A stretch of DNA of 64,000 nt, taken from positions 20,214,001 to 20,278,000 of the forward strand of contig CM097885.1 in assembly GCA_044892525.1 (NCBI GenBank). The letters are read 5' to 3'. The position numbers and the translations under genes are program-made. The DNA is from Schmidtea polychroa (taxonomy: Eukaryota). Numbering within the stretch: the stretch's first letter is position 1; each line of letters opens with the position of its first letter. Below are positions 1 to 27,606 of this stretch, in pieces. The notes beneath the pieces are model-generated. The model searched no databases. It was not told where the DNA came from and saw nothing but the letters and a program-made list of their open reading frames with translations.

Positions 1-752
1 ACCTCATCCCTTAATTTTACGGGAGGTTCGGGTGCTCGTCTTTTGCTCAACTCGTTCATTCTTATTATTTCGAGTTGCGTTGCTATCAACTGTCTCTTTA
101 ATTCTGGTATTTCTTGTAATTGCTTCTCTTTACTTTTCCATTTTCTCTGCTTGATGGTTATTGCCGTCTGCAATGCTTGCATGCTTCGTCGTTTTTGATT
201 TAAGATTCTCCGGTAATTTTCTTTCAACTTCCATTGTTTTTCTGTTTCCTCTCTTTGTTCCTTGATCTCTTCCTTGAGTTTTACATTTCTCTTCTCGACT
301 TTTTTACTTTCTCGCACTCTTGTTTTTGCATAAGCATATTGTGCTTCTAACTGCTCGATATAGACTTGGTCGATATTCACAATCTTTTTCAACTTCCTTG
401 TTTCTGATTTCCAATAATCTTCGATTACTGCCTGAGCTCTCAACTCTACTATCTCTTGTCTCAGGTTTTTATTTTCTGTCTCTTTTCGTTTCGATTCCTT
501 TATTTCCCTCAAAATTTCTTGCTTGACAGTGTTTATTAATCGTCTTGATTGAACAATATGCTGCCTCAATCTCGTAATCTCTACATTTTGATTTGCAATC
601 TTTAATTTGAACAACTTCTTGCTGACTCTCCATTTATTGCTATAATATTTCATCGGTTCTTGTTTGATTGGTATCATATCCTGGTTTTGTTCAGGTTGGT
701 CGTTTGACTTTCCTTCGTTACTCGTTGATTCTCTTTCTTTTAAATAATTCAT
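1..752 (-). CDS. Partial coiled-coil protein (>=250 aa, open to window edge; absent from the ORF track)
   Basis: Manual translation from ATG 752 (MNYLKERESTSNEGKSNDQPEQ...KRRAPEPPVKLRDE) has no stop to position 1. E/K/R/Q-rich with scattered W like the neighbouring 532-aa ORF; TTTTGTAG just upstream. Confidence 0.8.
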   Translation of the reverse strand, partial: MNYLKERESTSNEGKSNDQPEQNQDMIPIKQEPMKYYSNKWRVSKKLFKLKIANQNVEITRLRQHIVQSRRLINTVKQEILREIKESKRKETENKNLRQEIVELRAQAVIEDYWKSETRKLKKIVNIDQVYIEQLEAQYAYAKTRVRESKKVEKRNVKLKEEIKEQREETEKQWKLKENYRRILNQKRRSMQALQTAITIKQRKWKSKEKQLQEIPELKRQLIATQLEIIRMNELSKRRAPEPPVKLRDE

Positions 753-835
753 ATCTACAAAAATATACATATCATATTTCCTTTTGTCTTCTTTTTATTC
801 TGAATTTTTTGGTTTTGTAATTTTTATTTGGTTTT

Positions 836-837
<2 letters not shown>

Positions 838-901
<64 letters not shown>
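838..901 (-). repeat. 64-nt poly(A) tract on the coding strand
   Basis: Uninterrupted T-run on +, about 33 nt downstream of the 532-aa ORF stop and just after AAATAAG on minus. Confidence 0.9.
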
Positions 902-933
902 CATTCTTATTTACAGGCAACATCTCCCTTCGA

Positions 934-2532
934 CTAAATCCATGTTGCGTTATTTTGTTCGTTATTTTCATCGAAGCCTTCATCTGTGGTGACTTCGGCA
1001 GGCTGTGGCACTTGCAACGGGAACGGGTAGAGTGGCATTAATAATATTGGTGGTTGTCTCCTTAACCGATCTATTTCCTCTCGTAGTTCCGTTGAGATGT
1101 TTATTTCCTCATCCAATAAAAACGTTAATCTACCTTCGTTTTCTATCCTTTCGTTTAATTCCTCTTCCAATCGTTGGGTTCTTTCGAGCGTTTTTAGTTT
1201 TTCAATTTCCGCTCTCAAATTTGCTTCATTTTCTTCGAAGCATCGTTTTATTATCTCGGTTTCCTGTTTGGTTTGTTGAATTGTCTTGTCGCACTCCTCT
1301 CTATATTTCGCATTAAGCTCAATCTGGTGCTTCCAATTCACATCCCTTTGGGTGTACATACCTTTATATCCGTTCATCTCTTGATTGGCTTCTTCCACTT
1401 CGGTTTGTAATTGTCGGATCTGTCGATCTTGGTCTGTCAATTGTTGTTCCCATCTCTTTTCCTGGAATTCATACCTTCTTATTTCTCGAGTCTGTTTCTT
1501 TATGATTCTCTGTCTACCGTCGCTGATCCGCGTCTTGATTCTATGTTCTCTACTCAATCGGCTGATCTCATCTTTTTGGTTTTCTATCGTTTCCCATATT
1601 TTAAATTCGTCTCTTTCCATCAGTTTTATTGGTAACTGTCTTAACTCCTCTTTGGTCTCTTTCCAATTCTTTTTCCATTTTCGGGCTTGATGCTTGAGAC
1701 ACTTTTCGGTTTCCTCAGTTTTTTGCTGTCGTTTTCTCCACTCTACTTCCTCTTCTTCTCGCTGTGCAGCTCTTGTTTCGTAAAATTCTTGGTCTGCTTT
1801 TCGTAATCGCAGTTGTTCCTTGCTACTGATTTTCCAATAGAGTACTTGAGTTTGACTTCCTAGGTATTTATACTTCCATTTCTGGGCTTGTATCTTTATT
1901 TGTGTGTTAATTCGCTCTAATACGTTATCTCTAACAATTGGTTCTCTATGCGGTGTTCTCCTCCCTTGCCCTCTGACTTCGTTTAGGGTCTTTTTGCATC
2001 TTTCCCATTTTTCTTTCATCATTGCGCATTTGCCCTTTACTTCTTCTAGTTCGGCCTTGTAATTCCGTATTTGATGTTCGTGACTATCATTCTGCCTTGT
2101 CTGGAGGGTTTCGTACTTTAGTTTCCATTGTTGCGCTTGTAGTTTTATTCGTTCCGTTTTACGCTGTTCTTCCTCGTATTGCTCCTTTGCTTCCCTAATT
2201 TGTGCCTTCTGCATTATTATTTCTCCGCATAACCCAACTATCTCCATAATCCGCTGAGTTCGTAAATTCGAGAGCTCCTCCTCCAATTCTTGGTATGTTG
2301 AGGTATTTCTCACATCCTCGGTTAATTCCTCTACCTGTTTCATCCACTCCTCCTTTGTTGCTAGTGCTTCCGCCTTCTCCGCTTCTAATTCTTGTTGCTT
2401 TTTCTCATACATGGTTTTGTACATTTCTATTTCTCTCTTTACTCTTTCTGCTTCGTATGTTTGTATGATGGATTTGTACTGTTCGAGTTGTTGCATCTCG
2501 GTTTCCACATAGGTTTGTGATTCTTTATTCAT
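934..2532 (-). CDS. 532-aa coiled-coil accessory protein of the element, function unknown
   Basis: Long intact ORF with E/Q/K/R-rich heptad pattern, recurring 'QAxxWK' motif (QAQQWKLKY, QAQKWKYKY, QARKWKKNW) and a Pro-rich tail. Confidence 0.85.
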   Translation of the reverse strand: MNKESQTYVETEMQQLEQYKSIIQTYEAERVKREIEMYKTMYEKKQQELEAEKAEALATKEEWMKQVEELTEDVRNTSTYQELEEELSNLRTQRIMEIVGLCGEIIMQKAQIREAKEQYEEEQRKTERIKLQAQQWKLKYETLQTRQNDSHEHQIRNYKAELEEVKGKCAMMKEKWERCKKTLNEVRGQGRRTPHREPIVRDNVLERINTQIKIQAQKWKYKYLGSQTQVLYWKISSKEQLRLRKADQEFYETRAAQREEEEVEWRKRQQKTEETEKCLKHQARKWKKNWKETKEELRQLPIKLMERDEFKIWETIENQKDEISRLSREHRIKTRISDGRQRIIKKQTREIRRYEFQEKRWEQQLTDQDRQIRQLQTEVEEANQEMNGYKGMYTQRDVNWKHQIELNAKYREECDKTIQQTKQETEIIKRCFEENEANLRAEIEKLKTLERTQRLEEELNERIENEGRLTFLLDEEINISTELREEIDRLRRQPPILLMPLYPFPLQVPQPAEVTTDEGFDENNEQNNATWI

Positions 2533-2614
2533 TGTCTAAATAATTACACTATTACTACCACTATTATTTCATACATTTATTATCTACACTTTATACACGG
2601 AATTTTAATTTTTT

Positions 2615-2986
2615 TTATTGATCGGCGTAGCGGAATCCTTTGATTCGCTGCGCAATCCTCTGTCTGCACATCGGACATTCCTTTACTTTTCTACTACATG
2701 TGGCACATGCGATCAAATGTCCGCATGGCATATGAATAACTTCTACACTCCTCTCCCAACACATAGTACATTTGATATCTCGTAAGATAGCTGTTTTGAC
2801 CATTGATTCTTCTTTTATTTTTGTTTCAGGTTTTTCTCTATACTGGGTTATCGCTCTGATCATATCGTACGTTGTTGTTGGTATATGTACATTTTTCTGT
2901 AGTTTCTCTCTAATCATGTTCTTTGCCCTTGTCGTGCCTATTCCGGCTGCTTTCAACGCTCTGCACATGTTGGGTTTGTCTACCAC
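2615..2986 (-). CDS. C3HC4 RING protein of IAP/MUL1/MDM type; frame stays open upstream to about 3082, overlapping the polyprotein end
   Basis: CTMCWERSVEVIHMPCGHLIACATCSRKVKECPMCRQRI matches the C-terminal RING pattern of IAP-like E3s. The track start is GTG. Confidence 0.85.
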   Translation of the reverse strand: MVDKPNMCRALKAAGIGTTRAKNMIREKLQKNVHIPTTTYDMIRAITQYREKPETKIKEESMVKTAILRDIKCTMCWERSVEVIHMPCGHLIACATCSRKVKECPMCRQRIAQRIKGFRYADQ

Positions 2987-2990
2987 TTCG

Positions 2991-5900
2991 TCAACCTCTT
3001 GTTCGTCGATCCATAGCTGTTCCGGTATCTTTCCGTTTTGGCGGATTGTAAGTTGTATCTTTTGACGTGGTCGCTCCTGGATCTACTCTCCAGTTGCTCC
3101 ATTCATCGGTTGTGGTTACATCTTTATTGGCACCTCTTTCCACGTTATCTAAATCCGTCTCGGCTTCCGTCGTTTCCACTGGTTGTCTCTGCGCGCATAC
3201 AAATCCATCTAAATCATCAGTTGTCGGTTCACCTTCGTCGATAAATAGATCTCCTGATTGCGATGCTCTCATAATCTCGCCTGCTTCTACTATCTCTTGT
3301 AATTCATCCAGTATTTCGTCTTCTCCCGTTGTTTCGATCGTCACTTCACTAACCGCATTTGGAACTTCTGGTGTGTCCAAACTTCCTGGTTGTTGGGTGG
3401 ATGATTTTTGCTTTATCTCTCTTCTCCTTAGCTCTCTACCTGCAATTTTACTCACCGTTAATCTGTTCACAATTTCTCCTTGGAGTGGTGTCACACCGAT
3501 CTCAATATCGTCGTCTAATGATCGTCCCTCGTGTTGTAAGTGGAATGGGAGTTCATAAGGTATTCTCTTTTTAACTTCTCTGACTTTAGCTGTCGTATAG
3601 AATTCCTTTTCCATTGGTTCAAAATCTGGCATGAATATTTTTAATTGATATTTCTCAGGTGAGTTTTCGGCCCACTCTTGTTGTTTCCATTTCCGGATAA
3701 TTTCACCAAATTGTTCAGGGTACCATACGTACACCCGTCGATATTCTTCAATCGCTTTAACGATTTTTCGTAGGTTTTGAATCCTTTTGCATGATTCGGC
3801 TATCCATTTTGCTAGTTCTACCACCGCTCGTCGACGATTTTTCGCCCCGTTTTGTAATATCTCCATCAACTCCTTACATTTTTGTGCTTCCAACAATGTT
3901 GCTGCTTCTTCCTCATCTGCGTCGGCGTCTATTGGTAGATGTCCTGAATCAGACACTCTTCTCCTCATCATACAGATTCTCGGTTGATTTTCTGGTATGT
4001 TCAGTCGTTGGTTCATTTCTTGTTCTGTTTCAACTTCTACTCTGATCTGGATAGCATTGTTTTTCACAAATTTTGACTGCTCATTCTCAATGTAACTTAG
4101 ACGTATTAATTTAGGTGTCCCAGAAGCGATATTTTCTGATGTTGTTGGTCGTTGATAGCAGGCGCTCCTTGGATCTGGTTTCAATGTTTCTTTATGCCTG
4201 TTAAGGCTATCTTTCAATGGTTCGATTGCTATCGTCACTTTTCTGCTAAACGGCCATGGTACCTTGTCGTCATAATTTCCTTTGCAGATGACGAAGAATG
4301 CCGACACATAACTTCCTTTACCTATCCCGTCTCCGTTCGGGTATATTCGCAATTTCATCTTGTACTCACCTAATCCTGAGTAGAACGGTGGACTTACTAA
4401 TCGTGTGATTTTCTCTTCCTTTGCTGATTTTATCTTTTCCATCCAATTCTCAATTTTCCACGTGAATGGTGCTAACCTTACTGGTTCTCGTATCTCCTCA
4501 TCTTCTCCTGATGGTAATTCATTTTGGAATTCTTGTGGTAATATATCCTGGTAAGTATCGATCGGTTTCTCTCTTACCCATACTGCTGCGATCTCTTCGG
4601 GTATATTATCTATCCAATTTGGTTCCAACTTTTGCTGCTCCCAATCCCATCGAGCTTCACTTTCGATCCACACTTTTTTCCATGGTATCAGTTTGCAATC
4701 TTCGTCATTGAAGGCTGCTAGTTTTAGTTTATCATCCTTTAGCCAATGGTTATAAATATCTATTATTCGATCCATCTTTGCTCTCATTCCCCATTGGAAT
4801 CTTTTAACTTGTTGCTCGGTTTTCGTGGCGTTTTTGTGCCCACCAGATGGTTCATCCATCGCGATTATATTGATGACGGCTCCATCTTCCCAGATTCCTA
4901 GTTCGTAAATTACAGTTCGGTCTCCTCTTTCTAGCATGTGCCGGTTGTACATTATTATCACATCTTCGATCATTCCATCCTCACTATTTTCTCGAGCTTT
5001 TTGGATGATCTCTTGATCTATGATTTGCACTAACTCGTCAACTTGGCAATCGGGATTAACTTCTATTATTTGTTTCTCTTCATTTGGCAACTTCACCTTT
5101 ATTTTTATCGTTTCATGCTCGCATTTGGTTCTCTCGTATTCTCCGTATTTAGATATCAATTCTGTCGCTCGTTTGTCTTCGAATCTCATAATTTCCGTGT
5201 CTCGTACGTCTTTAACAAATTGTTTCATTAGTTGTGGCCATCTTTCTCTCAATCTATTAATGTATTTCCTTGTCTGATCGATAGCTTGTTTGACTAAGAT
5301 TATTTGGTTTTCTTTCATTATTTTTCGTTCGATCTTTTCCAATTCTGGTTCCACTTCATTGTTAAACACTTGTTGGATTTTCTTGAACATTTCTGCTACC
5401 GAGTCGTCATCTCTGGTTTTCTCTAAGGTTAAGATGTTAGTTTCGTTTGGCCATATCATCGCATCTACCAAATGTATGCCCATTTTAACTTTGTAACCAT
5501 CGACATATAATTGTTTATTTTTATGGCTCGTTCCCATTTTTTCCTGTACCCAGTTGTACAGTTCATCGGTATTTGTTCCTTTTAATTCAATAGTCTGTAT
5601 CTGAATCTCGGGGTGTTGAATACTTACTTGATATTGATCTGGGCCTGCTTCCTTTAGTTTCTCTTTATATTTTGTTGCTAAATCTTTCCATGCTGCCGTT
5701 ATTATACCTCCTTCGCACTGGTATACTTGAGTTATAAGTTTTAAGCATTTTCTGTATGTTAACTCGTTGATGTAGCTCTCATTTCGCTCTATTTCTGTTA
5801 CTGTGTCGAGAATTTCCTCGAATATCTCTTCTTCATCTTTTTCTATCATTGATTTCATGTCATCATTTTCACTCTCCTCACTACTTTGAGGTGTTTCACT

Positions 5901-7925
5901 GTTTGGAGGTGTTTTCGGTTCGTTATTTTCCTCACTTGACTGAAATAATTCGCCTCCCAGGCTACTCACCTCACTTTTCTCATCTTCCTGATCCGTCTGA
6001 TCGCTCCGCATTTGTCTCAGCATGTTTATTTTAGCTTTAGTATGTGGTTCCTTCTTTTCAAACCACTCATTTTTCCTGAACCAATGCTCTTTCACTTTTT
6101 CTTTTATTTGTTCCTCAGTTAATGTAGGATTTTCGTTTTTGATTCTGTCTTCGATTTTTTGTAGTAGTACCCTCTGAATTCGATTTTTTGTAATTATCTC
6201 ATTGCTTTTTGGTTCGTCTTTACTCTCATCTCTCTTTTGTCTCCTTTCTTTCTCCTCTTTGGTAAATTCTTTAATCAATTGTATTTTCTCTTCACTGCTC
6301 AATTCTGTTCGTGGATCAATCTCATCTTCTTTTGTCGTTTTTATCTCCTTGTTTATTATCGGTTCACTCCCGTCGTTGTTAACACACTGCTCCGCAGTGT
6401 GCGATTCCTCTTTATTTGTTAATCTCATCATATTTATTCTTCCGGGATTCGCTTCCCGTTGTTTCCATCTTTCTTGAATTTCTCTGGCTTCCTCGTTTTG
6501 TAATCTTTGCCATTCGACTCGTTGCTGATCTTGTTGTTGCTTACTTGGTTGGTTCCGGATTTCCTCGGTGCTCTGCATCATGTTGATTCGTTGTTGTTGG
6601 TTATTAGTCGGTATTCGCAGGATCATATCTCTTAATTGTTCGATTTCCTGCATGAGGTTGATTTGTGTGTTCTGAACTGGATTGTTTGATCCTGGTTGAT
6701 TTGGTTTGGTTCTCATCGTGCATTCTCTTGCCATGTGTCCAGGCTGATTACAATTGTAGCAGGTTCTGGTTCCTCCTCTGCTCATAGACATCATGGGTCC
6801 TCTGCAGACATTTTCCGTGTGGCCTCTTCTCCCACACTTTTGACACATCCTTGCTTTATAACATTCATTGCTCCAATGCCCTGGTCGTTGGCATATGTTG
6901 CACGTTCGATTGTTGATGTCGTTGTTCCTGAAATTATTAGTAAAATTTTGAATATTACCTCCATTGTTTTGGTTTCTTGTTTGTGGAGTTTTGAACAACT
7001 GTTGCGATCCTGGGATGAATTGATTCATTACTGGATTTGCATTATTGACTTGGTTGTTTGTGGTTGTTGCTGTTGTTGCTGGAGCTGCTGGGGCTGCTGT
7101 CATTGCTGCTACTTGTATTGGTGTTAGGTAAGTTTCACATTTGTTAGCTATTTTTAGTGCTTCTTCCAGCGTCTCTGGTGCTCGGCATCCCAAAGTTGCT
7201 CGTATATCCTCCCGTTTCATGCCATCTACGAATACGGCTATTATTTTGTCTTCCGGAACTGGTTGATTTGAATCGAAGGCTTCTCGTGCTAGTCGTCTCA
7301 ATTCGCATGCGTACAGTGCGTTGGATTCGTTATATTTCTGCTTTCGATGCAGAAAGTCTAACATTTTTCGATTTCCCTCTTTTTCGGTACCGAATGTTTT
7401 TATTAAAAACTCCTTGATCTCTTTCCACGTTCTCAACTTAGTTGCATCACATTTCGCCTCCAAGTATACATCTTGGGCGCTTCCCTTTAGATATAGGGGT
7501 ATTCGTTCTCGTACGACTATGTCTGGCCAGTGACATATCGTAATGTATACTTCGAATTCCTTTATAAACGTTTCCAGCTGGTTTATATTTCCATCGAATG
7601 GCTCTCCTCGAAATTTCTCTCTGAATTCTCCAATGTTGACGTGCACATTACTTGTTTCCGGTGGGTCCGTTAGCCCTGTTACATTTGGAATTCCGTCTGT
7701 CATTATTTCTTGACACAAAATTGTTATATTGGTTGACTCTGAACTATTTCCTTCCTCGTCTGATGATTCAATGTCACTTATCGGATCTAGTTCGGTTCGT
7801 TTAAGATCGTCGCTGTTCTCAAATTCGTTTGTTAAACTATCTGATTCAAATACTGTTTCTACTGATGCTGGCTTCCTGTGTAGTTTTCTGTTGGTCTTGG
7901 CCTTTTGTATCTCTTCCTTTTCCAA
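2991..7925 (-). CDS. gag: Gag polyprotein fused to host-like domains: capsid - 3x CCHC - Ubl - Ubl - TRAF MATH - Ubl
   Basis: Capsid ~7125-7620 (PFDG...LYLKGSAQ...RKQKYNES...PETLEEA). Three CX2CX4HX4C knuckles 6720-6902. Ubl-like segments ~5418-5636, ~4839-5111 (ends SGG) and ~3446-3653. MATH ~4029-4469 (FTWKI..SPPFYS..YPNGDG.GKGSYVS..WPF). Track start is TTG; first ATG is 7703. Confidence 0.9.
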   Translation of the reverse strand: MEKEEIQKAKTNRKLHRKPASVETVFESDSLTNEFENSDDLKRTELDPISDIESSDEEGNSSESTNITILCQEIMTDGIPNVTGLTDPPETSNVHVNIGEFREKFRGEPFDGNINQLETFIKEFEVYITICHWPDIVVRERIPLYLKGSAQDVYLEAKCDATKLRTWKEIKEFLIKTFGTEKEGNRKMLDFLHRKQKYNESNALYACELRRLAREAFDSNQPVPEDKIIAVFVDGMKREDIRATLGCRAPETLEEALKIANKCETYLTPIQVAAMTAAPAAPATTATTTNNQVNNANPVMNQFIPGSQQLFKTPQTRNQNNGGNIQNFTNNFRNNDINNRTCNICQRPGHWSNECYKARMCQKCGRRGHTENVCRGPMMSMSRGGTRTCYNCNQPGHMARECTMRTKPNQPGSNNPVQNTQINLMQEIEQLRDMILRIPTNNQQQRINMMQSTEEIRNQPSKQQQDQQRVEWQRLQNEEAREIQERWKQREANPGRINMMRLTNKEESHTAEQCVNNDGSEPIINKEIKTTKEDEIDPRTELSSEEKIQLIKEFTKEEKERRQKRDESKDEPKSNEIITKNRIQRVLLQKIEDRIKNENPTLTEEQIKEKVKEHWFRKNEWFEKKEPHTKAKINMLRQMRSDQTDQEDEKSEVSSLGGELFQSSEENNEPKTPPNSETPQSSEESENDDMKSMIEKDEEEIFEEILDTVTEIERNESYINELTYRKCLKLITQVYQCEGGIITAAWKDLATKYKEKLKEAGPDQYQVSIQHPEIQIQTIELKGTNTDELYNWVQEKMGTSHKNKQLYVDGYKVKMGIHLVDAMIWPNETNILTLEKTRDDDSVAEMFKKIQQVFNNEVEPELEKIERKIMKENQIILVKQAIDQTRKYINRLRERWPQLMKQFVKDVRDTEIMRFEDKRATELISKYGEYERTKCEHETIKIKVKLPNEEKQIIEVNPDCQVDELVQIIDQEIIQKARENSEDGMIEDVIIMYNRHMLERGDRTVIYELGIWEDGAVINIIAMDEPSGGHKNATKTEQQVKRFQWGMRAKMDRIIDIYNHWLKDDKLKLAAFNDEDCKLIPWKKVWIESEARWDWEQQKLEPNWIDNIPEEIAAVWVREKPIDTYQDILPQEFQNELPSGEDEEIREPVRLAPFTWKIENWMEKIKSAKEEKITRLVSPPFYSGLGEYKMKLRIYPNGDGIGKGSYVSAFFVICKGNYDDKVPWPFSRKVTIAIEPLKDSLNRHKETLKPDPRSACYQRPTTSENIASGTPKLIRLSYIENEQSKFVKNNAIQIRVEVETEQEMNQRLNIPENQPRICMMRRRVSDSGHLPIDADADEEEAATLLEAQKCKELMEILQNGAKNRRRAVVELAKWIAESCKRIQNLRKIVKAIEEYRRVYVWYPEQFGEIIRKWKQQEWAENSPEKYQLKIFMPDFEPMEKEFYTTAKVREVKKRIPYELPFHLQHEGRSLDDDIEIGVTPLQGEIVNRLTVSKIAGRELRRREIKQKSSTQQPGSLDTPEVPNAVSEVTIETTGEDEILDELQEIVEAGEIMRASQSGDLFIDEGEPTTDDLDGFVCAQRQPVETTEAETDLDNVERGANKDVTTTDEWSNWRVDPGATTSKDTTYNPPKRKDTGTAMDRRTRG

Positions 7926-8793
7926 TAAACTGAGGTTTCCTTTACTTTTTCGCCTCGTTCGGTTAGCTATGCTATCAATTTTTCCTCTTTTTAATATCCT
8001 TTGATAAATTTTCTACTTTGTCAATCGAGCTCGATGTTTTCTAAGTATTTTTCTCGCTTTAATCTTTACGATTCTCTAACTCTTCTTGGATTTGGTTTTA
8101 TTAATTTCCTTGATTCTTCGCTTCTAATTGATTTCTCTATATCTCTTGATTTCTATTGCTTTCTTGATTTCTTTGATTTCTTTCTGAATTGTTTGCTTTA
8201 TTCTAAAATAATTAACACCTCTAGTACATATCATAAATTCTCTTTATTAAACCCTTCATTTACTTTCCTTTTCCCTTTATTTTACTGTCCCTTCGCTTCA
8301 AATTTTCTAGCTTTCTACACTTCTCGCTATTCGCCCCATTTTGATTTTAAGTTGATTTTAAATTATCTATAACTCGTATCAATTATCTATATAGTCGTAT
8401 CAATTATCTATCCCTTTTATTATTATCATAGAAATATAATATTAATCACATAAATATCAAAATAAACATATCATTAATAAATAAAATTCAATAATTCAAC
8501 TACTATCTATTCGTTCGCTTTTCCCCATCCAAAAACTGGTTTAATTTTCGCTTGCGCCGGCGCTTTATCATAATTCTCCTCTACTCATTACATATTTATC
8601 GCACTTAATCTATTTCAGTTTAATCAATTTCATAGTTAATCATTGATGCTTTGGTTCGCGCGACCTCTACATCCACCTTTATTTACCATCGGCTCTCTGG
8701 CCGGTTTGTTCAACTCCTTTATTTTCATTTAAATCATTTCACTCAATTACCATCGGCTCCTTGGCCGGTTTAATCAACTCATTTTAATCTCAT

Positions 8794-9103
8794 GAAGTCT
8801 TTTACGACTCCTAGACGCCTGGGCTTTTACACCATTACGCCATATAATCTACTATTACCCATCAACGCTTTGGTTTGTTAGACCTCCGCGTCGGCATCGG
8901 CTTCCGGCCGGTTTAATCAAAATTGAAGTCTTTTACGACTCCTAGACGCCTGGGCTTTTACACCATTACGCCATATACTCTACTATTACCCATCAACGCT
9001 TTGGTTTGTTAGACCTCCGCGTCGGCATCGGCTTCCGGCCGGTTTAATCAAAATTGAAGTCTTTTACGACTCCTAGACGCCTGGGCTTTTACACCATTAC
9101 GCC
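8794..9103. repeat. 131-bp tandem repeat (~2.4 copies) upstream of gag, with degenerate pieces at 8645-8790
   Basis: GAAGTCTTTTACGACTCCTAGACGCCTGGG... starts at 8794, 8925 and 9056. Confidence 0.9.
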
Positions 9104-9222
9104 GTATTCGCGGTCTTCGGTCCCTGACCGGTTTCAAATGCCCTAAATGAGGTTTCTTCAACCCCCAGACGCCTTCGGTTTTAACACCTACTATCGTCCC
9201 TACCGCGATTAAATTGAGTTGA

Positions 9223-9789
9223 CAGTTGACTTTCGGGCTAATCAAAAATTCGAGGCTCCTCCTACTCCAACTCTTAATCTGCTGAGGCCTCACAACTGGC
9301 TCAATTCTTGGCCGCTTATTGAAAAGAGTCTAATACCGGTAACTCTAATCTCATCGCCGTTTCACTGGGCCTATCGGTACTCGGTGTGGGCATCCGGGTT
9401 TTGTACCGACCCCTGCTAGCAATAATCACGAAGAAAAACATCCTATCTATCAGGATTTAAAAAACACGGAAATGCCTAATCGCCTTGATCGTGATTCTCA
9501 AAAGTGATGAACCAGATCTCCCGACTAGTGAAGATAAAAGGAAATTGGATATGCAGTTGACTTTCGGTCTTCCGCCTCACAACTGGTCCAATCTTGGTTG
9601 CCTATTGAGTACGAGTCCTTTACCGGTTGACTCGCATCTCACAACCGTTTCACTGGGCTCCTTGATACTCGGTGTAGGTAACTGGGTCTCTCTCGCTCGC
9701 TACCCTTCCGGGTTTTTGTATCAAGTCCCGCTAGCAACTCAAAAAAGTGCGCCCAATACTCGGTGTGGCATCCGGGTTTTTGTATTGGG
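9223..9789. promoter_or_regulatory. Duplicated GC-rich hairpin modules upstream of gag (candidate packaging or translation signal)
   Basis: 9223-9420 and 9553-9738 are diverged duplicates. Hairpins at 9374-9409, 9661-9725 and 9752-9789 share a core and have compensated outer stems. Confidence 0.55.
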
Positions 9790-10511
9790 TGATCCAGCAT
9801 CATCAGTCCCTTGGCTGATAATCTCCTGGACACTACAGTCCGGTGGTTAGCCGCTGTACTCGGGTGCCTCATCACTCGCTAGGGAAAAATCATTATTCTC
9901 ATCTGATTTGAAGTCCAAAAACGGTTTCTTCAAATCCGCAGCTGCTCTCGGATTGAATTTTTTAACATTTAGCGCGCGTTTTTCAATTTTTATTTTATTT
10001 TTCTATTTTTATTCACCCTTTTTGTTAGTCCCCGTCTCCCAGACAAAAAAATATAATAATCGCGTTGGTTCGTTTCCCACAAGTGGTGATCAGTCACTGG
10101 ACAGAAACTCCCCAACATTTGCGATGGATCCTACTACATTCTCTCATCAGGGTGATCAGGATTTCCCCATCCGGGCAAGTGTCGTAAGGACGATTCACTT
10201 GTCATCCCCTCATTATCGTATCTCTTTATGCCAAAATAACAAACAGGAAGAAAAGAAAATTGGAAATAAAAATCGTACTGATCTTAGCGATCAGCTCATT
10301 CATACGACTATGATCAGTCCTGCATTCAACTTTGATTTTAGTTCTAATTGCTGTGTTGCTTGTCTATTTATTTAACGTATTTTGTGTCCTTTATATGTCT
10401 ATGTTCATCGTATGTTTTACACCTTTCGGTTGCTATAATGGATTTTTAATATAATTTACTAATTTTATCACTTCATATTCATTCACAAGAAATTTATTTG
10501 ACAACATCTCC

Positions 10512-10994
10512 TTATGGGAGGTATATTACAATTTTCTCTCTAACATTCGTATCGCATACGTTGCATCGTTTAATTTTCTCTGCGCAATTCTCGCAGTAGC
10601 ATAAATGACCACATGGAATCGTCATTACTCGTATTTCATTGGTTCTGCATATGAAGCATTTTCTAAAATCTTTAACTTGATGTTCGATTGCTTCTTTAAT
10701 TTCTTCCTCGATCGTTTCCATTTTTATCATTATCTCCTGCCATTTGATGTTAAATTTGGCATTGTCTAATCGTAAATTTTGAAGTTGATAAACTCTTTTA
10801 GTGGTCAATTCTGCATTAGGTGTCGCTATTTTCATCATTACGCATATTTCCTCAGCTTGCGGTCTTGGATTCAAGCTCATCTCATCTTGGATTTTTATCA
10901 ACTGGTCCGCTTTGCGATTTAGCCGTTGTAACGAATTGTGTGTTAAATCTACGAATTTTTCGAGTCTCTTTGTAATGTAGCCGGTTGATTCCAT
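10512..10994 (-). CDS. 160-aa coiled-coil plus IAP-type RING protein
   Basis: CFICRTNEIRVMTIPCGHLCYCENCAEKIKRCNVC...IYLP C-terminus; TTAATTAG directly before ATG; AATAAA at 10493-10498. Confidence 0.88.
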   Translation of the reverse strand: MESTGYITKRLEKFVDLTHNSLQRLNRKADQLIKIQDEMSLNPRPQAEEICVMMKIATPNAELTTKRVYQLQNLRLDNAKFNIKWQEIMIKMETIEEEIKEAIEHQVKDFRKCFICRTNEIRVMTIPCGHLCYCENCAEKIKRCNVCDTNVREKIVIYLP

Positions 10995-11370
10995 CTAATT
11001 AAGATTTATTAATTAAAGTTCTCTTTTTATTAATATTCCGCGTCATTTTTCCCCCTTTATCGTTTTTCCCCCTAATATCCAGAATACTTTATTTTATTAG
11101 TGCTTCGATAAACCTTTACATTCTACTTATTACCCTTAACAACCCCGTCTCCCTCTGTTTAATGCTCTATTCCGCGCACATTTCTTTCATGATCTTGTGA
11201 TTTTATTACAATCGTTTTAATTATATATAACTCATATCCCATTCCTTATCGCCATATTTTACACGTTTTCTGATTAAGTTTAATTTCATTGTTCATTTGT
11301 TCTATCTTTATTAGCGTGCTATCCCCCCTTTTCCCTATTTTTAAATTTTTATTATTTCCTTATATTTACA

Positions 11371-11508
11371 TTTTATTAATCGTTGCTATTTACAATTTTT
11401 TTATAATTTGTTTTCGTTTTAATTTTCATTTATCCTCAATTTTATTAATCGTTGCTATTTACAATTTTATTATAATTTGTTTTCGTTTTAATTTTCGTTT
11501 ATCCTCAT
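11371..11508. repeat. 69-bp tandem duplication
   Basis: TTTTATTAATCGTTGCTATTTACAATTTT... at 11371 and 11440. Confidence 0.8.
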
Positions 11509-11789
11509 TCATTCTATTACTAAGTTATTCGTACAGCATTCTCATACCCACTTTCAATACATTCATATGTCGTCATACTTTAAAACTTCCATCACTCATT
11601 TAGACATTCTACATACATTTTATCATATTCGCATATCCATATACTAAGTTTAAGCGCTTGGGAAAACAACCTGCTCGGTCTTGAATGCATATCACTTTAT
11701 ATCCGCTTTTACTCTCTCTATTATATCTATTCTCGGGTTCTTTCACCAATTAAATTTTCAATATCCCGGCTGAGCCCCCAAATTTGTAT

Positions 11790-12010
11790 GGTGGGTTACT
11801 GGTGGTTGAATGATTGAGTGCTGTTACCAGCGTAACCCAAAATACAACATTGTTTTTCCGCTTGGTACCCGTTGAGTGATCAACGTTGGTACTGTACCAA
11901 GGGTTGAGTACTCGCAAAAAGTGAGCGCATCAAAGCACTATAGTTGTCGAGTACTCCGTGGGTTCACGGACTACCGATAGAAGGTGTGTGTCCGATTTCT
12001 CAGGTCCCTT
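11790..12010. ncRNA. Conserved structured cis-element, copy 1
   Basis: Inverted homologue at 23398-23630 with compensatory changes in at least three stems. Confidence 0.6.
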
Positions 12011-12186
12011 TATCAAAATTGTTTTCCCAACCTTATGCACAAACTCTCATTTCCCAGGCAATCATAAACTGTACTAGTCCTTATTTTATCACTACAAAAC
12101 GTGCAGTATTTTAACAAGGAACATATTATTTGAAGACTACCACAATACATAAAAATACTACAAAACACCTAAAACCGAATATAAGT

Positions 12187-12699
12187 TCAAACAGGCTTAT
12201 TGGTAGGACTGGCCAATTCCGTCGCAGCTGCTAGTGACGAATTTGCTTGTCGCTCGTATTCGGCCAGTCTAGCTTTCTTCAATTTTTCCCGAATATTTCG
12301 GCCTAACCGCTTTCTTTTGGGTTTCTCTTTCGCGGCCGGGGGGTATATTGCTGCTAGTTCCACGGTCAACGGCCGGATTTGGCTTATGGCGGCTCCGTGA
12401 ACTACTTGTTCATTTCGCTCGGTTTCTAGCGCGCGGAGCTGGAGCTTCAGTGCCCGGATCTCCATCTGATCCTGCGCGGCTTGAGTCTGCAGTTGAAGGA
12501 CCTGCGCCACCTTCTTTTTCATATCCTCGGGACTAAACCAGGTGCTTTCTAGTTCCCGGCACCGTCCCTTGAGCTTGTCTACTCGTATGCGGAGCTCCTC
12601 GGACTGTTTTTGAGCTTCTGCCCTATCTCTTCGCAGATTTTCCAATAGTTTGAACACTAGATAAATTCAACGATTATATTCTTGCAGCGTACTATTCAT
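12187..12699 (-). CDS. Coiled-coil protein with basic NLS-like patch (KPKRKR); one in-frame TGA near the likely start
   Basis: The 156-aa track ORF starts at GTG. The same frame reads ATG(12699) NSTLQEYNR*IYLVFKLL..., so either a point nonsense change or a 36-nt GT..AG intron removes the stop. Confidence 0.65.
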
Positions 12700-12866
12700 T
12701 CAATTATAAAATAAAATCAATATTATAAATAGACATGGTTTCGGGTGTTAAGCACGCAATACACAAGATGATTTATTAAAAGGACTGAAATAATTATCAC
12801 TAAAATCAAAGTTTAATAAAGTCACAACTGGATGATAATTTGCAAAAACAAAATTTTGACGATGAG

Positions 12867-13232
12867 TCAGTTCAGTCGCTTGCGAGGCCTTCCCCTCTTC
12901 CGCGGGGTTGCCTCGGCCTCTTCTAGGTCCTCCACGGTTTTTCCCTCTTTTTCTGCTTGGATTTGCAGCTCGATCTTCTTGAGTCGCATCTGAGCTGCCT
13001 CTACCTCGATGGCCGCTCGGTCGCGGGCCTCTTGCAAAAAATCGTTTGTGGGCTCTGTTTTTACCCACGCCGGAGCGTCCGGCTCCGGCCCACTCCTGAT
13101 TACTGGGCCAAAGTTGTCGAGGTCCAAACCCCGATTCCAATCATGGATACGGTGCCATATGTACCGTGTACGGAGTCTGGTAAGCAGCTGTCGGTCGGCT
13201 TCTTCGTGGCTATCGCTGTCAGAGTAGGACAT
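12867..13232 (-). CDS. 121-aa protein with C-terminal AT-hook
   Basis: Ends TPRKRGRPRKRLN (RGRP core); has a VKTE SUMO-consensus site and a short coiled coil; TTTTGTAG 2 nt before ATG. Confidence 0.75.
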   Translation of the reverse strand: MSYSDSDSHEEADRQLLTRLRTRYIWHRIHDWNRGLDLDNFGPVIRSGPEPDAPAWVKTEPTNDFLQEARDRAAIEVEAAQMRLKKIELQIQAEKEGKTVEDLEEAEATPRKRGRPRKRLN

Positions 13233-13617
13233 TTCTACAAAATAATAATCAAGCCCCTCTATACTGATTGAGATACGACGTCAACCACAAGATTTTGTTG
13301 ACCCTTTTTCCCTTTAAAAAAAAAATATTTTATTTTAAGACTAACATCTATAAGCTTAGGAGTAGTGGAATAAGATTTCCTACTTTATCAAAACAAACAC
13401 AAAAAAAAAAAGAATTTCGTCAAAATTCGTTTGTTTAAATTAATCATTTCCATTCAAAATTTTGTTTACCACCGAGTGGTAATCTTAATTACTATTTATA
13501 AATTTTAATTTATATGTTAATAAAATGTGAATTTTTTTTTTAGATCGTCATTTTTAGGCCACTAAATTCGGGCACGCTGGGGCGACAGGTACTAGCAACG
13601 AACTAAGCTCTTCGTCT

Positions 13618-13628
13618 GCTTACCTTTC
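13618..13628 (-). promoter_or_regulatory. Candidate major splice donor GAAAG|GTAAGC
   Basis: Consensus 5' splice site in a GC-rich island (13555-13670) upstream of all minus-strand ORFs. Confidence 0.45.
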
Positions 13629-13747
13629 CTTCGGTTGTGCTCGTTATGAGTGGTTTGCTCTGCATACAAGTAATTTATTTAATTTGCTAATTTCTAAATT
13701 TCCAGGTGATCGATATCGGATTGGGATATCGATTTTTTGTAGTTAAC

Positions 13748-14100
13748 TGTAATAATACCAATAATAATAACAATGAAATAACGATACTAATAATAATAAT
13801 AATAATGATAATAATAATATTAATAATAGCAATGATAGTAATAATAATAAGAATAATAATAAATTTTAATAATGGTAATAATAATAATACTAATAATAAT
13901 AATAACAAGAATAATAATAAATTTTTATAATGGTACTGATAATGATGATAAATATAATAATGCTAATTATGATATTCATAATAATGATAACAATAATATA
14001 ATAATAATAAGAATAAGAATAATAATACTAATAGTAATGATAATGTTGATACTGCTAATAGTAATAACAAGGGAAATGATCAGGATTATGATAACTATAA
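13748..14100. repeat. Degenerate (AAT)n microsatellite
   Basis: Read directly. Confidence 0.9.
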
Positions 14101-14849
14101 TTTTACAATCCCATGTTTTAGAATTATAAATTTATGTTTTATAATTTATACTTTGATAATTTTCGATTTATAATTTAAAATTTTTCAATTTAGGGATTTA
14201 CAATCTTGTAATTTATAATTATAATTTCATATTTTGAAATTTATACATTCATATTTTATAAGTTATAATTGCTTAACTTATAATTTCTAAGTTTATAATC
14301 TGAAATTTATACTTTTGTAATTCGTATTTTCGTACTTTATAATTTGAAATTTTTAGTCGACGGAATATACTTCTTACAACTTCCTTTCTATGATCAACAT
14401 TGTTTTCCGCAGTACTTACAGATTTCCTGGTCCTATTTGTGGATTAAACTTCAGGGTTCTAGCGCGTCTATCGCCTATTACTATCTCTGATCAGACTTTC
14501 TCCATTAACACTTTACATTTTCAGGATCGACGTGATTTGTACCTAGCTATCGTAATTATTTATAACTTATAGTTTTATGGTTAACAACAAGAATATTACA
14601 ACTAAGAGCCTACACATTTACAAACCTTTTAAAGTGGGAACTAGATTTAAAATGTCTATCTTTACTCGGAATCAGCATATCTAGGCCAAGTTATACCTGT
14701 ACGTATGCCGAATATCTCTCTTATTTCTATTACTTTATCAAAGATCCTTACTACAAAATCTAGTTCGGCATATGTCTAAGCATAATTGAAATTACCATTA
14801 TGAATCAACTAGCTACATTAATGTGAGTGTAGAATTGTGTAATTTTAGG

Positions 14850-16074
14850 TACGAGCTCTACTCAAATTAGAACCTTAGTGTAGAGTTATTGTTCAGGATT
14901 TTAAGTGTTGAGTTTAATTGTATATTACGCAATGAGTCGGGAAGAATATTGCTTCCATGGCCCCACTGTGACCACGTCCACAAACCTTAGTGTTGTGTGC
15001 TAAGTCAACCATTTACGGCTGACCTTAAATAAATACGAAGAGTCAGGCGGAGGGTTTCCTCGACCTAACTCCATGGCAGGACCATGAAGTAGTTCGACCT
15101 CCGGCTGACCCGAACAAAAAGAAATCATATAATAAATATCACTATAATAATGATAATGCGTGTCTGCATGTCCTGTTAATAACGATTTTAATAAATTGGA
15201 TGCAGGACTGAACAACGACGCAGGAATACCAGTACGCCGTTGATCACTCATACATCGCAAAAAAAAAATTTAAGCAAAAATAAATTTAAAATACCATCTA
15301 TATAATTAAACAATTAATATACAAATAAAGATCAATGCTTACTATCGATTTTGGAAATTTCGTCACAAAAATTTGGCATAAAAGTGATTGATTGTGACTG
15401 AAACGTGTCAGTATATATACCTATTTAGTACACGTGTATGTATTGATGCATTAAAACAAACTCGAATTCTTTTTATTCCAGAATTTTCTATTTTACGATT
15501 TTGCTATTTTTAATGGCAATTTTTTGTGCCATAATTTTTGTTTTTATTTTTATATTTTTATTTTTTAATTATTTTTCATTAATTTTACGTCCATGATGGA
15601 TTTGGAACGGTTCCAGAACATTCTATTTTACTTTTAATTTAATTTTTATTTTAACTGATGTTTTTATGAATTCTTTTTGAGATTTTTTTATTTTTAATAC
15701 TAATTCATTTATTTTCCTTAACTTTTGTTGTTCTAGATGACTTTTGTGATGGTCATCGCCATTTTATAGAATGTTCTGGGTTTTTCTGGAATTTTTTACT
15801 ATTTTTATCGTCTTTTCAGTTATTCGAGTTTGCTTTTGGTAATTCTATGTTTGTTTGATTATTTTTGAGTTAGGTTTTTGCATCACTTCTTGCTTCTGTA
15901 TAATTTTATTTAATTTCTTTGTTTATGTTTTTGTTGCTTTCTCCTTTAGTTAATATTGTTTATTTGGTGTGTATTTTAATATTTAACTATACTTTTTGCT
16001 TTTTACATGTTGTGTACCTGCACGTTTCAGTCACAATTAGTAGTTTGGGTCTAGAAATCAGTTCTAGCCCAACA
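14850..16074 (-). repeat. Terminal repeat copy A (LTR end or long TIR)
   Basis: Outer ~750 bp closely matches 25080-26273; inner 14935-15120 closely matches the reverse complement of 19030-19215. Confidence 0.85.
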
Positions 16075-16374
16075 CTCTGGTGTTGGGCATATCTATAATG
16101 ATAAAAGAGACATTAAAACGACTCCTTGTTCCTCCAACTACGGGGTTACTCCAAAAGTTCTGAATACACCTTTACAATTTACGTTCTAGCATGATATACA
16201 TTTCATCCAACAGACAATAGTTTTTGCATGTAGGGTAGTTTTAAATTACGAACTAATTTCCATATTCGATTTTTATACCCCCTTTTACTAGATTTAGTCG
16301 GGTTTACCAAATTAAGTTAGGTTCGCATATTAAAAATCAGAGATGAATAATTCTAGGTTTTACTGAATCAATAG

Positions 16375-23630: not shown

Positions 23631-25667
23631 TATCATAAATTGGTTGGAGTAAGTTATATAGTTAATAAGTAGGGTCAGATGGGATGTTAGATCGATGATG
23701 TCGTAAGGGATAGGAGATGAATTATGAGTGACTTTTTCCGGATATCAACTAAATTAGCATGGCTAGGCCGATATCAACGACGGTATGAACCAAGGGGGGG
23801 GGGTCTTTTGTGAAGATTTATAAGTAATCATCCTAAATATACTGCAAGTTAAATCTATATTGAAATAAGTTAGTTTATGCAGGGGGTCATTTATGAGTAT
23901 TTATAAATTATCATTTTACTACACTACAAGCTTAGGTACTCTGAGGGCTATTTATGAATATCAATGAATTATAATTCTAAAATTCGATGGCTGTACGTAT
24001 ATAAGTTAATTTACTACTATATATATGAAACCTAAGTACTTATGGAACAAGGTGAGCTATACGCTTATAAGTTTCAAATATACATATATAAGTTAGATTA
24101 TGAATATGAACATGTGTTTCGACGATTTCGTAACTTTGGGTTAGTTAGGAAAAATTATAATTTTTTGTTTTTTAAAGTTTAATATACTTATATATGCTTT
24201 AATATACTAATGGTAATGATATACTCTTTATTAATGTAACTTTGTAAAAATAATAATTATAATAATAATGATCCTGAAGATGATAGTATTATTAGGGCAC
24301 AAAAAAATCTTTAAAGATTTTATATAAGCTAAATTTCAATACATATAAAGGTAAATATAAAATTTTTACGAAATGAATCTAGTCCATAATAACACACCAT
24401 CGAACGTGAACTAGACTACATTTATGATTGAATATAATTATGAATAATATTAGTAGAGTCTATTAATGATAGATAATATTGAGCATACTGAATAATAGTT
24501 TGTGCAATTAGCCGACTACTTGAGAACTTTTGTGATAATTTGAGTCTGGAATATTTCCCGTTTAGATGTTCCTAATGATGCATTTCCTATCGAATATTTG
24601 AGTGTGCATTTTATGTATGTGATTTACCGAAAGGTCGAATTAATTAAAATTTTCCTACTTTCCCGACTCAACTGAATACGGTACGATAGGCCTTATTGGA
24701 TTATGTTTCCCGCGATTACTAGCCCAAATTTTATTTCGTCCGCATAGTCCCTGCGACTATGGCAACTACCTGGATGGATTTACCGCCCTACTCCTGGTTA
24801 GAAACCATTTGTTCGTGGCGACCTTCAGGTTAAAAAAAAATGAAATTTTGTGCATGTAGGGCCGTAGACCCGAATTTGTGCATGTGAAATAGTAGTTGGA
24901 AACAAGGCTGATCAGCGTCGCGAATAAAACCCGTCGACGACGCTGGTCACTCTTGTTACGTAATAGTAAAATGATAACAAAAAAAAAGGACAAAATTAAA
25001 AATCAATATAATGTATCATAAAATAATAATTATACAATAAATATAATCGACCATCCTTACTTTCAATACTACTTGAAGTTTCGGTAAAAATTTTTGGCAT
25101 ACAAAAATATCTGAATTGTGACGAAAATGCGTCGGTATATATACCTGTTTTGTACACGTGTATGTATTGATGGATTAAAAAAAACTCGAATTCTTTTTAT
25201 TCCAGAATTTTCTATTTTGTAATTTTAATATTTTTAATGGCAATTTTAGTGCCATAATTTTTATTTTTAAATTTTTATTTTTTAATTATTTCTTGTTATT
25301 TTTACGTCCATGATGGATTTGGAACGGTTCCAGAACATTCCATATTACTTTTAGTTTAATTTTTATTTTTAACTGATATTTTACGAATTTCTTTTTAAGA
25401 TTTTTTATTTTTAATACTAATTTATTTATTTTCTCTCCTTTTTATGGTTCTAGATGGCTTTTGTGATGGTCATCGCCATTTTTATGGAATGTTCTGGGTT
25501 TTTCTGGAATTTTTTACTATTTTTACCGTCTTTTAAGTTATTCGAGTTTGTTTCTTCTAACTCTATGTTTATTTGGTTATTTTTGAGTTCGATGTTGCAT
25601 AACTTCTTGCTTTTGGTATAATTTTATTTAATTTCTGTGTTTATGCTTTTGTTGTTTTCTCCTTTAA

Positions 25668-26145
25668 CACGTTGACTGCCACGCGTGTTTACAACAAAAT
25701 CCCCGTCAGGCCACCGGCGCCACTGTAAGATGCGTGCTCTGCTACCGCATGTCTGTTTACATTTCTTTCGGTACTCTCAGCCCGATATCTATTACGATCC
25801 TCATTTATCACGTTATTACTCTGCACGAGCAGTTGTAATCTTTGCCGTGCAAATCTCAGAAAACCCACTACTTTTTGTCCAAGCTGCCCTGGTCAACCGC
25901 AACTTTGCAGTGAATGCTTCAATATTTTACACTGTAAATAATTTTGTTAATAAACGATTTTTAAAAAAATTCAACAGTATTATTATCTCCTGTCATATAT
26001 TTATCTAAATATGTTCGGAAATCCTTTGGAAGGAGTCACCCGATGTGGCCTGATGAGAACTCTTGCTGTCACCCGAATACGGGTGACGTGGCCTGATGAG
26101 AACTTTTGCTGTCACCCGAATACGGGTGACACGGCAGTTAACGTG
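25668..26145. mobile_element. Non-autonomous piggyBac-type element, 478 bp
   Basis: TTAA on both sides; TIR CACGTTGACTGCC / GGCAGTTAACGTG; empty site visible in the paralogous terminus at ~15941-15960; 43-bp subterminal repeats. Confidence 0.9.
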
Positions 26146-27606
26146 TTAATTAATATTGTTTATTTGGTGTATTTTTAATATTTAACTACACTTTTTGCTT
26201 TTTGCATGTTGTGTACCTACGCATTTCAGCCACAATTAGAAGTTTGGGTCTAGAAATCAGTTCTAGCCCAACAGATATATGTGCAATGGTGCAACGCATT
26301 TTGGAAGCTTTTAAAGGTGAATTAAAAATTTACAATGTAAATTATAGAATTTAATCAGTGTAAAAACAGAAAAAAATAGAAATATTGTCGATATAAAATT
26401 TAAATAATTATAATTCTAATTTAAAAACAGATTTAAAAAAATTCTTAAAATTTTTGCATACGTTCACGAGCCTAGCGGCGTATTTACCTGTTCTATTCTT
26501 TGGTCAAAATTTAGAAACTAAGCCATGAAAAAAAAATATTACAGGGGCCACAATAATTGATTTTTGCCTAGGGCCTCAATTTGTTAAAATCCGCCTCTGC
26601 ACGAGCCACTAATACCTTTGGTTTATATTGTCCCTATCTTTTTTGTATTTATTAAAAAACTTGACTGTGAAACAGAAAATAATTCTTTTTTATTTTTATA
26701 TTAATAGATACACGACCTAAATTTATGAAGAAGCTGAAAGTTTTTAAAGTTTTCATTAGAAATTTTTTAAAATTTTAAGTGCATAAATTTTTAAATAAAA
26801 TTTCAATTTAAATAAAATATTGAGTTATTTAGTAATTTACCAACCGATGTTAATGTTCTAACGGATGAAAATCCTAATAAATTTAAAATAACTTTATTTG
26901 TGTCCTTCAATATAAATATATTATTACATTATTATAAACATAAAATGTTTATTAATATTAATAACTTTAATAATCTATATAATTTTATCAATAATATCAT
27001 TAGAATTAATAATGGATAATAATAATAATAATATATTATAAAATGTTTAGTTCCCAGAATATCAATTACAGCGGTTTTACTGAATCTTCAGTAATAAATA
27101 AAAAATGGAAAATACTAATGTTTTCTCATAAAGTTGTATTCAAAGAAGACTTTATGCATAATACTACGATAAGGAGACATTATAAGCAGAGAAAATGAAT
27201 TATATTATACCTCTAATAAGAAAATGTTCTTGTGGCAAAACTAATGAATAATTCATTTACAGCACAAATCAATAGTAAACTGTCCATATTATGGAAATGC
27301 GGTGAACACTCATTCTATTAAACTACTTTAAGAATTTTCAATCGCTATTAAAATGTCCTCTATAAAAGGTTTTCGTCATTTCCTTGCAAAAAATTAAAAA
27401 TTTTAGTATAAATTTTTAAGATAGTAAGGTATTAAATATAAAATTTTAAAAAAATACAAATTTAAAAACGTTTATATTCACCATAAACCAATGAAAACAA
27501 AATGAAGTTTAAAATTTATTATCCAACTAATTGTATTTCACAAAAGCTAATCAAGAGGAATAAATTTGAAAAATTTCAAAAATAAAAATCACATTAAAGC
27601 TCCGAT

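Follow-up and report, generated by a model that had tools for sequence, protein, structure and literature searches.

A frame for Gag, ubiquitin-like and MATH domains in Schmidtea polychroa is most probably part of an internally deleted giant Burro1-type retroelement

Within a 64,000-nucleotide stretch of the Schmidtea polychroa genome (contig CM097885.1, positions 20,214,001 to 20,278,000; hereafter the window) lies a long open reading frame (ORF) on the minus strand that an initial annotation, made from the sequence alone, had read as a Gag polyprotein in which a ubiquitin-signalling cassette takes the place of pol. The frame is uninterrupted, as claimed there, running for 1644 codons from its first TTG and for 1673 codons from stop to stop (2991..8012), and we find it to be what is left of the first ORF (ORF1) of an element of the Burro kind, giant Gypsy-like retrotransposons with long terminal repeats (LTRs). 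The insertion that contains it measures 21.8 kb, against 33.9 kb for a full copy, and extends on the minus strand from position 4277 of the piece to the left of the window (L015) to window position 16074. Its two LTRs are 100% identical over 4286 bp and, because they are identical and a target duplication flanks the element, the insertion is very young: the window copy is a genuine, very recent integration with an internal deletion (Table 1).

Gag-type features occupy the N-terminal part of the frame. Three CX2CX4HX4C knuckles are visible in the translation at residues ~340-401, as first reported, and are recognized by Pfam (zf-CCHC, E 2.4e-11; zf-CCHC_3 at residues 339-357), with nucleocapsid chains of the Protein Data Bank (PDB) matching at E 0.0026-0.09. 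The Gypsy-type capsid proposed alongside them returned no direct Pfam match in the window protein at E <= 1, and stands instead by way of two relatives, L025 and L026, which are 34-36% identical, align to residues 75/100-1094 and match Retrotrans_gag (PF03732) at 7.6e-10 and 1.5e-9; a Gag capsid is therefore probably present at the corresponding place. Further along come a TRAF-type MATH domain, a four-helix module and as many as three candidate ubiquitin-like (Ubl) segments, and a Pfam scan of the 1644-codon frame found neither protease, reverse transcriptase (RT) nor integrase, in agreement with the initial annotation.

Full-length relatives place this truncated frame in its proper setting. 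Searching the 781-Mb genome with the window protein, we scored 29 copies out of 7331 first-look candidates, all 29 of them 99-100% identical in protein; the open frame reaches 4791 amino acids (aa) in 17 and at least 4672 aa in 22, the 1673 aa of the window copy being the shortest of all. One full copy, read in overlapping 10-kb pieces (L003, L011 and L012), was traced over 33.9 kb from L014 1681 to L013 6073. Beyond the part present in the window, the same frame of this copy encodes a viral fusion glycoprotein (Pfam Monjiviricetes_fusion, 2.4e-68), an aspartic protease (RVP, 4.7e-4, just above its cutoff), RT (RVT_1, 4.5e-35), RNase H (RT_RNaseH, 1.7e-38), integrase (Integrase_H2C2, 3.7e-21; rve, 4.5e-12) and ankyrin repeats (Ank_2, 4.4e-8). 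The resulting order is Gag, three CCHC knuckles, ubiquitin-like modules, MATH, helical module, a further ubiquitin-like candidate, glycoprotein, pol and ankyrin, so that the ubiquitin-related cassette accompanies pol and does not replace it. Downstream of this frame lie a 392-aa ORF of the inhibitor-of-apoptosis (IAP) type, with BIR (9.4e-16) and RING (3.2e-12) domains, coiled-coil ORFs of 533 aa and 269 aa, and a 341-aa ORF.

Alignment to the same full copy reveals how pol was lost. By BLAST, window positions 2995-9424 are colinear with L003 6431-1 and positions 1-3000 with L012 8364-5366, in each case at 99.5% identity, and the two end points lie ~12.2 kb apart in the full copy; the segment missing from the window copy runs from the end of the region of the third Ubl segment to the middle of the IAP gene. 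A three-way alignment places the hexamer AAGAGG, common to both parental sites, at the junction; the window departs from L003 and L008 precisely at the end of the frame, and ORF1 meets its stop within one codon past the junction. This junction appears to belong to the window copy alone: a 44-mer spanning it occurs once in the 781 Mb with up to 2 mismatches allowed, and among the 40 scored BLAST matches to a 181-base junction probe (from 576 candidates) only the window spans it, the other 39 covering bases 81-181, on one side of the junction. A frame with Gag, Ubl and MATH domains and no pol thus results from a deletion with a junction seen once in the genome, and is not an architecture in its own right; for the same reason we reject a non-autonomous subfamily. 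Because a sister that is 99.5% identical on both sides holds all of the domains, we take the window copy to be a deletion derivative of the Burro1 family itself and not a member of another family.

Both the absence of pol and the presence of a RING straight after the frame follow from this deletion, which joins ORF1 to the tail of the IAP gene. A RING does come next, as the initial annotation stated (Pfam zf-C3HC4_3, 4.6e-13, in the reading frame 2615..3082), but it lies in a different frame and belongs to a separate gene brought alongside, so it is no part of the polyprotein. Of the IAP gene only the last third (EEVDEVVDKPN...RING) remains, and this remnant shares the C3HC4 RING of IAP (BIR-RING) proteins and lacks their BIR: no BIR was found in the remnant frame, and the full copy has that domain upstream of the downstream end point of the deletion. 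A programmed frameshift into the RING frame was also considered and rejected, the sequence after the stop being non-contiguous with ORF1 in all three usable sister copies (L003, L008 and L012). Two Burro1 copies on contig C1 indicate that damaged copies of other kinds exist as well: L029 has a 1-base gap in the Gag-MATH region, and in L027 the match to the window ORF begins at base 1104.

Table 1. Features of the retroelement insertion, in window coordinates unless a neighbouring piece is named.
Feature	Position	Strand	Remarks
5' LTR	11789..16074	minus	4286 bp, TG...CA
5' leader between LTR and ORF1	8013..11788	minus	tandem repeats inside
Truncated ORF1	2991..7925	minus	equivalent to the first third of the polyprotein (4791 aa) in full copies
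Capsid (Retrotrans_gag-like), approximate	7218..7499	minus	position transferred from relatives by constant offset
Three CCHC zinc knuckles	6717..6911	minus	residues ~339-403; translation, Pfam, PDB nucleocapsid chains
Proposed ubiquitin-like segment 1	5391..5654	minus	residues ~758-845; kept across Burro families; low-confidence model
Ubiquitin-like (beta-grasp) domain 2	4845..5126	minus	residues 934-1027; model, Foldseek, VIA
TRAF-C type MATH domain	4023..4466	minus	residues 1154-1301; Pfam, PDB profile match
Four-helix module	3669..3926	minus	residues ~1334-1419; modelled pLDDT 62-92
Proposed ubiquitin-like segment 3	3441..3653	minus	residues ~1425-1495; position of the review's Ubi2/SUMO-like motif
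Deletion junction	2995..3000	minus	6-base microhomology AAGAGG (element strand) in both parental sites
BIR-RING (IAP) gene 3' remnant	2615..2994	minus	out of frame with ORF1; RING ~2648-2776; BIR deleted
Accessory coiled-coil ORF, 533 aa	934..2535	minus	colinear with full copies
Second accessory coiled-coil ORF	3..794	minus	269 aa in full copy; runs just beyond the window's left edge
3' LTR	L015 4277-8562, left of window		4286 bp, TG...CA
4-bp target duplication CTCT	16075-16078 and L015 4273-4276		

The architecture of the full copies is that of Burro1, earlier named GYPSM1 (Jurka 2007, as cited in PMC6431247), a giant Gypsy-like LTR retrotransposon of Schmidtea mediterranea whose description is also credited to Grohme et al. 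2018 in the review by Arkhipova & Yushenova (2019; PMC6431247). The passages of that review devoted to Burro1 report an element of > 30 kb with thousands of copies and an ORF1 of 4873 aa, and share with our full copies a Gag with three CCHC knuckles followed by MATH_TRAF_C, an in-frame env between gag and pol (there matching mononegavirus glycoproteins), protease, RT, RNase H and integrase, ankyrin, a gene with BIR and RING (AIR1), coiled-coil (Smc-like) ORFs, a length > 30 kb and very high copy number (PMC6431247). They list in addition BCL2-like and dUTPase-like motifs and, from HHpred, a Ubi2/SUMO-like motif after MATH, to which our third Ubl segment, weakly supported here, corresponds in place (PMC6431247). 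The window copy departs from this description in being ~12.2 kb shorter, at 21.8 kb, and in having no in-frame env, protease-to-integrase region or ankyrin. Li et al. 2021 describe BURRO1 as highly abundant, active and intestine-enriched (PMC8532177), and our literature search on Burro/GYPSM1 found no other description of the element's domains. The initial annotation had suspected both a giant Gypsy element of the Burro kind and an architecture already in print, correctly on each count (PMC6431247): the family architecture is known, and the window copy is a broken copy of a described element, not a new kind of retroelement.

We then compared copies of the frame by the ratio of non-synonymous to synonymous polymorphism (pN/pS) in two sets. 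The first joined the window copy to its 9 best protein matches, a ranking by protein score that biases the ratio downward; its 58 variable codons comprise 44 synonymous and 14 non-synonymous, with a median pairwise pN/pS of 0.08 over 45 pairs, and across these 10 copies 8 codon states are private to the window copy (2 non-synonymous, 6 synonymous). The second drew on 5 copies picked by DNA match in another part of the element. Here the window copy and three gapless copies gave 0.096-0.158 over codons 15-1643 (pooled 0.12, 6 pairs) and L027, scored apart over codons 369-1643, gave 0.169, L029 having been left out for its 1-base gap; variable codons were too few for ratios by domain (MATH 5, Ubl segment 2 4). 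The frame is under purifying selection, and the constraint is that on the autonomous, pol-bearing lineage. The suggestion that an intact frame signals recent activity or selection is accordingly upheld, by LTRs that are 100% identical and by pN/pS of 0.10-0.17 among the DNA-chosen copies.

Taken together, these observations make it highly probable that the frame represents the N-terminal third of the ORF1 encoded by a giant Ty3/Gypsy LTR retroelement of Burro1 type, present here as one very young insertion with an internal deletion. Some 12.2 kb, bounded by two AAGAGG hexamers, would have been lost, leaving ORF1 to stop and a RING-only IAP tail to follow out of frame. Reverse transcriptase may have switched templates in the round that gave rise to this insertion, or microhomology-mediated repair may have removed the segment shortly after the element integrated, and the resulting copy would be unable to move by itself. 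Some points weigh against this account. The name Burro1 was assigned by architecture, size and copy number rather than by alignment to the published consensus, and the sister ORF1 measures 4791 aa from stop to stop here as against 4873 aa published for Burro1 (PMC6431247); a single copy, moreover, cannot decide when or how the deletion arose. Assembly polishing could inflate the identity of the LTRs, and the deletion itself could be an assembly error among thousands of near-identical copies. In the contigs of 4 public runs (X1, X2, X5 and X9) none bridges the junction, and contig loose ends at 2995/3000 run on into full-length sequence; as contigs drop rare variants, an unbridged junction in these four does not show absence. 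A full-length element might then occupy the locus, with 12 kb collapsed by the assembler, as could be expected of so extremely repetitive a family (7331 first-look candidates). We nevertheless judge this improbable, since the break falls at a 6-base microhomology and not inside a long internal repeat, the flanks are otherwise perfectly colinear, and internally deleted LTR elements are common.

Less probable still is a distinct type of element, or a subfamily, in which a ubiquitin/TRAF cassette, kept by selection, stands in for pol and which spreads as a Gag-only carrier of cargo. The intact frame with no protease, RT or integrase found in it, the identical LTRs of a young copy and a pN/pS well under 1 would all fit such an element, but the junction at which pol was lost occurs nowhere else in the genome, both of its sides are 99.5% identical to copies with pol in the same frame, and the low pN/pS is common to, and measured against, those pol-bearing copies, and reflects selection on the autonomous lineage. 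Scarcely any credence attaches to the idea that the Gag-Ubl-MATH frame is a co-opted host gene serving, for example, as a Gag-derived restriction or signalling factor: although the frame lies open behind an intact 5' LTR, and other animals are known to have host genes derived from Gag, a lone insertion whose LTRs are identical and which is flanked by a target duplication has had no time for co-option, and the window copy carries only its 8 private codon states. A recently deleted Burro1-type insertion thus remains our preferred explanation of the frame.

The MATH domain is the best supported of the signalling-related parts, and bears out the TRAF-type assignment made initially. Pfam recognizes it at residues 1154-1298 (MATH_2, 1.5e-29; TRAF-mep_MATH, 2.9e-27), and its closest solved relative is the TRAF-C domain of TRAF3 (E 4e-31; residues 1154-1301 against chain 42-187), followed by structures of TRAF5, TRAF2, TRAF1, TRAF4 and TRAF6; the TRAF3 domain aligns with it over its entire length. 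An exhaustive representative search with the window protein returned 3460 matches at E <= 0.001, hundreds of TRAF-like proteins matching MATH at ~40-45% identity, and among the 150 matches listed of those 3460 a single one, P0002, extends beyond the MATH block. Unlike TRAF2, TRAF3 and TRAF5, the element's MATH protein has neither a RING nor TRAF zinc fingers ahead of this domain, nor a long coiled coil, and Pfam found no N-terminal RING, TRAF zinc fingers or coiled coil in the 1644-aa frame. A TRAF-like RING/zinc-finger protein is encoded instead by a separate ORF downstream of pol in full copies, within the part deleted from the window copy. This accessory ORF (340 aa; L012 3190-4212 in a full sister copy) matches the RING-zinc-finger region of TRAF6 at E 5.8e-10 and contains no MATH, so that, with MATH in ORF1, the two halves of a TRAF reside in separate proteins.

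We next examined the three beta-grasp-like segments claimed for the frame, of which one is well supported. An AlphaFold2 model of residues 700-1100, built on the relatives' alignment, has a mean pLDDT (predicted local distance difference test) of 73 and folds residues 940-1022, in segment 2, as a beta-beta-alpha-beta-beta unit with pLDDT mostly 82-93. All 14 Foldseek matches to it at E <= 0.001 are of the ubiquitin family (TINCR Ubl, SUMO1, ubiquitin variants), with E 5.6e-4 to SUMO1, ubiquitin and other Ubls and TM scores of 0.66-0.76 on the target. VIA-align gives Z 10.3-9.5 at model residues 235-328, with a root-mean-square deviation of 2.0-3.3 over 71-83 residues in most rows and entire target domains covered. 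Residues 934-1027 thus share, in the predicted structure, the beta-grasp fold of ubiquitin, SUMO1, NEDD8, ISG15 and the Ddi1 UBL, at a sequence identity of 8-25%; segment 2 differs from these domains in a helix-loop insertion, where pLDDT dips to 67, and in being embedded in a polyprotein. We regard this one ubiquitin-like domain as confirmed at the level of the model. The SGG said to close it is present in the window protein and absent in all eight aligned relatives, and a conserved role of the di-glycine in processing or conjugation is not supported.

Segments 1 and 3 are plausible as ubiquitin-like, on models of low confidence and weak leads. For segment 1, modelled at pLDDT 32-51, the top match of its profile to the PDB is a redesigned ubiquitin (E 0.039), language-model (Atlas) features score 0.88 to ubiquitin clusters, a lead only, being under the 0.9 line, and 21 columns are invariant among 7 sequences. 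Segment 3, with pLDDT 46-63 in a model whose overall mean is 48.7, drew nothing from Foldseek at E <= 0.001; Pfam ubiquitin matches it in three of five family members (best E 0.028), its top profile matches, at E 0.44-0.63, are ISG15 (first, at E 0.44) and ubiquitin variants, and its Atlas features also score 0.88. A recent triplication is unsupported, hhalign detecting no mutual similarity among the candidates (probabilities of 34% for segments 2 and 3, 10% for 1 and 3, and 0.1% for 2 and 1). Between MATH and segment 3, the four-helix module, which was modelled with confidence, is conserved in every Burro family aligned; Foldseek gave no match at E <= 0.001 for the region after MATH, its best rows (E 0.25-0.7) being a designed helical repeat, the TFIIS LW domain and the LEDGF integrase-binding domain.

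Comparison with other Burro families shows which parts of this array they have in common. A word-indexed homologue search over the near-length and shorter classes returned one match in each: P0152, 35-36% identical to the window protein, and P0002, a 49% identical fragment that also has MATH. The same genome holds other Burro families (L017-L020, L025 and L026), with an ORF1 of 4733 to ~4843 aa, that are 34-36% identical over residues 64-1094 and 1312/1351-1644; they share Gag, the CCHC knuckles, Ubl segments 1 and 2, the helical module and Ubl segment 3, followed by the same fusion glycoprotein and protease. All six of their ORFs align up to residue 1094. Four resume at 1312 or 1351 and reach 1644, a fifth resumes at 1351 and ends at 1410, and the sixth has no second aligned block, the five that resume having ~50-90 residues in place of the ~220-260 of the Burro1 MATH block. 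Pfam found no MATH in two long pieces from these families (2803 aa and 2779 aa), in agreement with the Dugesia tigrina element that the review describes, in its passage on that species, as having no MATH in ORF1 (PMC6431247). The ubiquitin-like fold upstream of MATH is therefore conserved across Burro families, and the MATH block is an insertion peculiar to the Burro1 lineage; the review's account of Burro1, in the passages that list its domains, makes no mention of such a fold at residues 934-1027 (PMC6431247). The mononegavirus-type glycoprotein, which in the full Burro1 copy occupies residues ~895-1218 of the L011 ORF, where it separates the Gag-proximal part from the protease in one and the same frame, is also found in L025 and L026, two of the other families (Pfam range 2.4e-68 to 1.2e-72).

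The broader view that all Burro families carry an old, Gag-adjacent array of up to three Ubl domains, predating the capture of MATH, is one that we put forward tentatively and hold to be rather unlikely as a whole. A Gag to which ubiquitin is fused can support the budding of retroviruses and, were this view correct, the Ubl modules could link the capsid to ESCRT, proteasome shuttles or deubiquitinases for budding or processing; a role in engaging host ubiquitin-binding machinery is conceivable because these elements carry a viral fusion glycoprotein. The Burro1-only SGG could then be a point of cleavage by a host protease that frees the MATH-bearing part, and a deleted copy such as that in the window could express a protein of Gag, Ubl and MATH domains only, interfering with the particles of full copies or riding in them.

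Outside the frame, the window presents several further features. Tandem repeats in the leader include one of 131 bp at 8793-9107 (2.4 copies, 98% matches) and one of 69 bp at 11370-11507 (2.0 copies), and the match to the sister copy breaks at the latter with a 69-base overlap. A run of 64 T at 838-901, poly-A on the element strand, separates the two coiled-coil accessory ORFs, and an imperfect (TAA)n microsatellite of ~98 units lies within the LTR at 13750-14044. Older fragments resembling the Burro1 LTR (87-92% identical) occur at 25075-26273, ~9 kb from the young insertion.

To the known biology of Burro1 our analysis makes minor additions: a young deletion derivative described in its exact anatomy, support at the level of the fold for a ubiquitin-like domain that precedes MATH and is conserved across Burro families, a MATH insertion confined to the Burro1 lineage, and a separate accessory gene whose product is a TRAF-like RING/zinc-finger protein. 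Where copies are full, their ubiquitin-like and MATH parts would presumably be released from Gag or carried with it, and may act on the TRAF, ubiquitin and apoptosis pathways of the host; that such elements interfere with host apoptosis and ubiquitination was offered as speculation by the authors of the 2019 review (PMC6431247). The proposal of the initial annotation that these domains may alter cell-death or immune signalling in the host is speculation of the kind that this review had voiced. The young insertion is evidence of recent Burro1-type mobility in this genome, and the question of why a retroelement should carry TRAF-, IAP- and ubiquitin-related parts, already posed in print, is one that can be approached experimentally.

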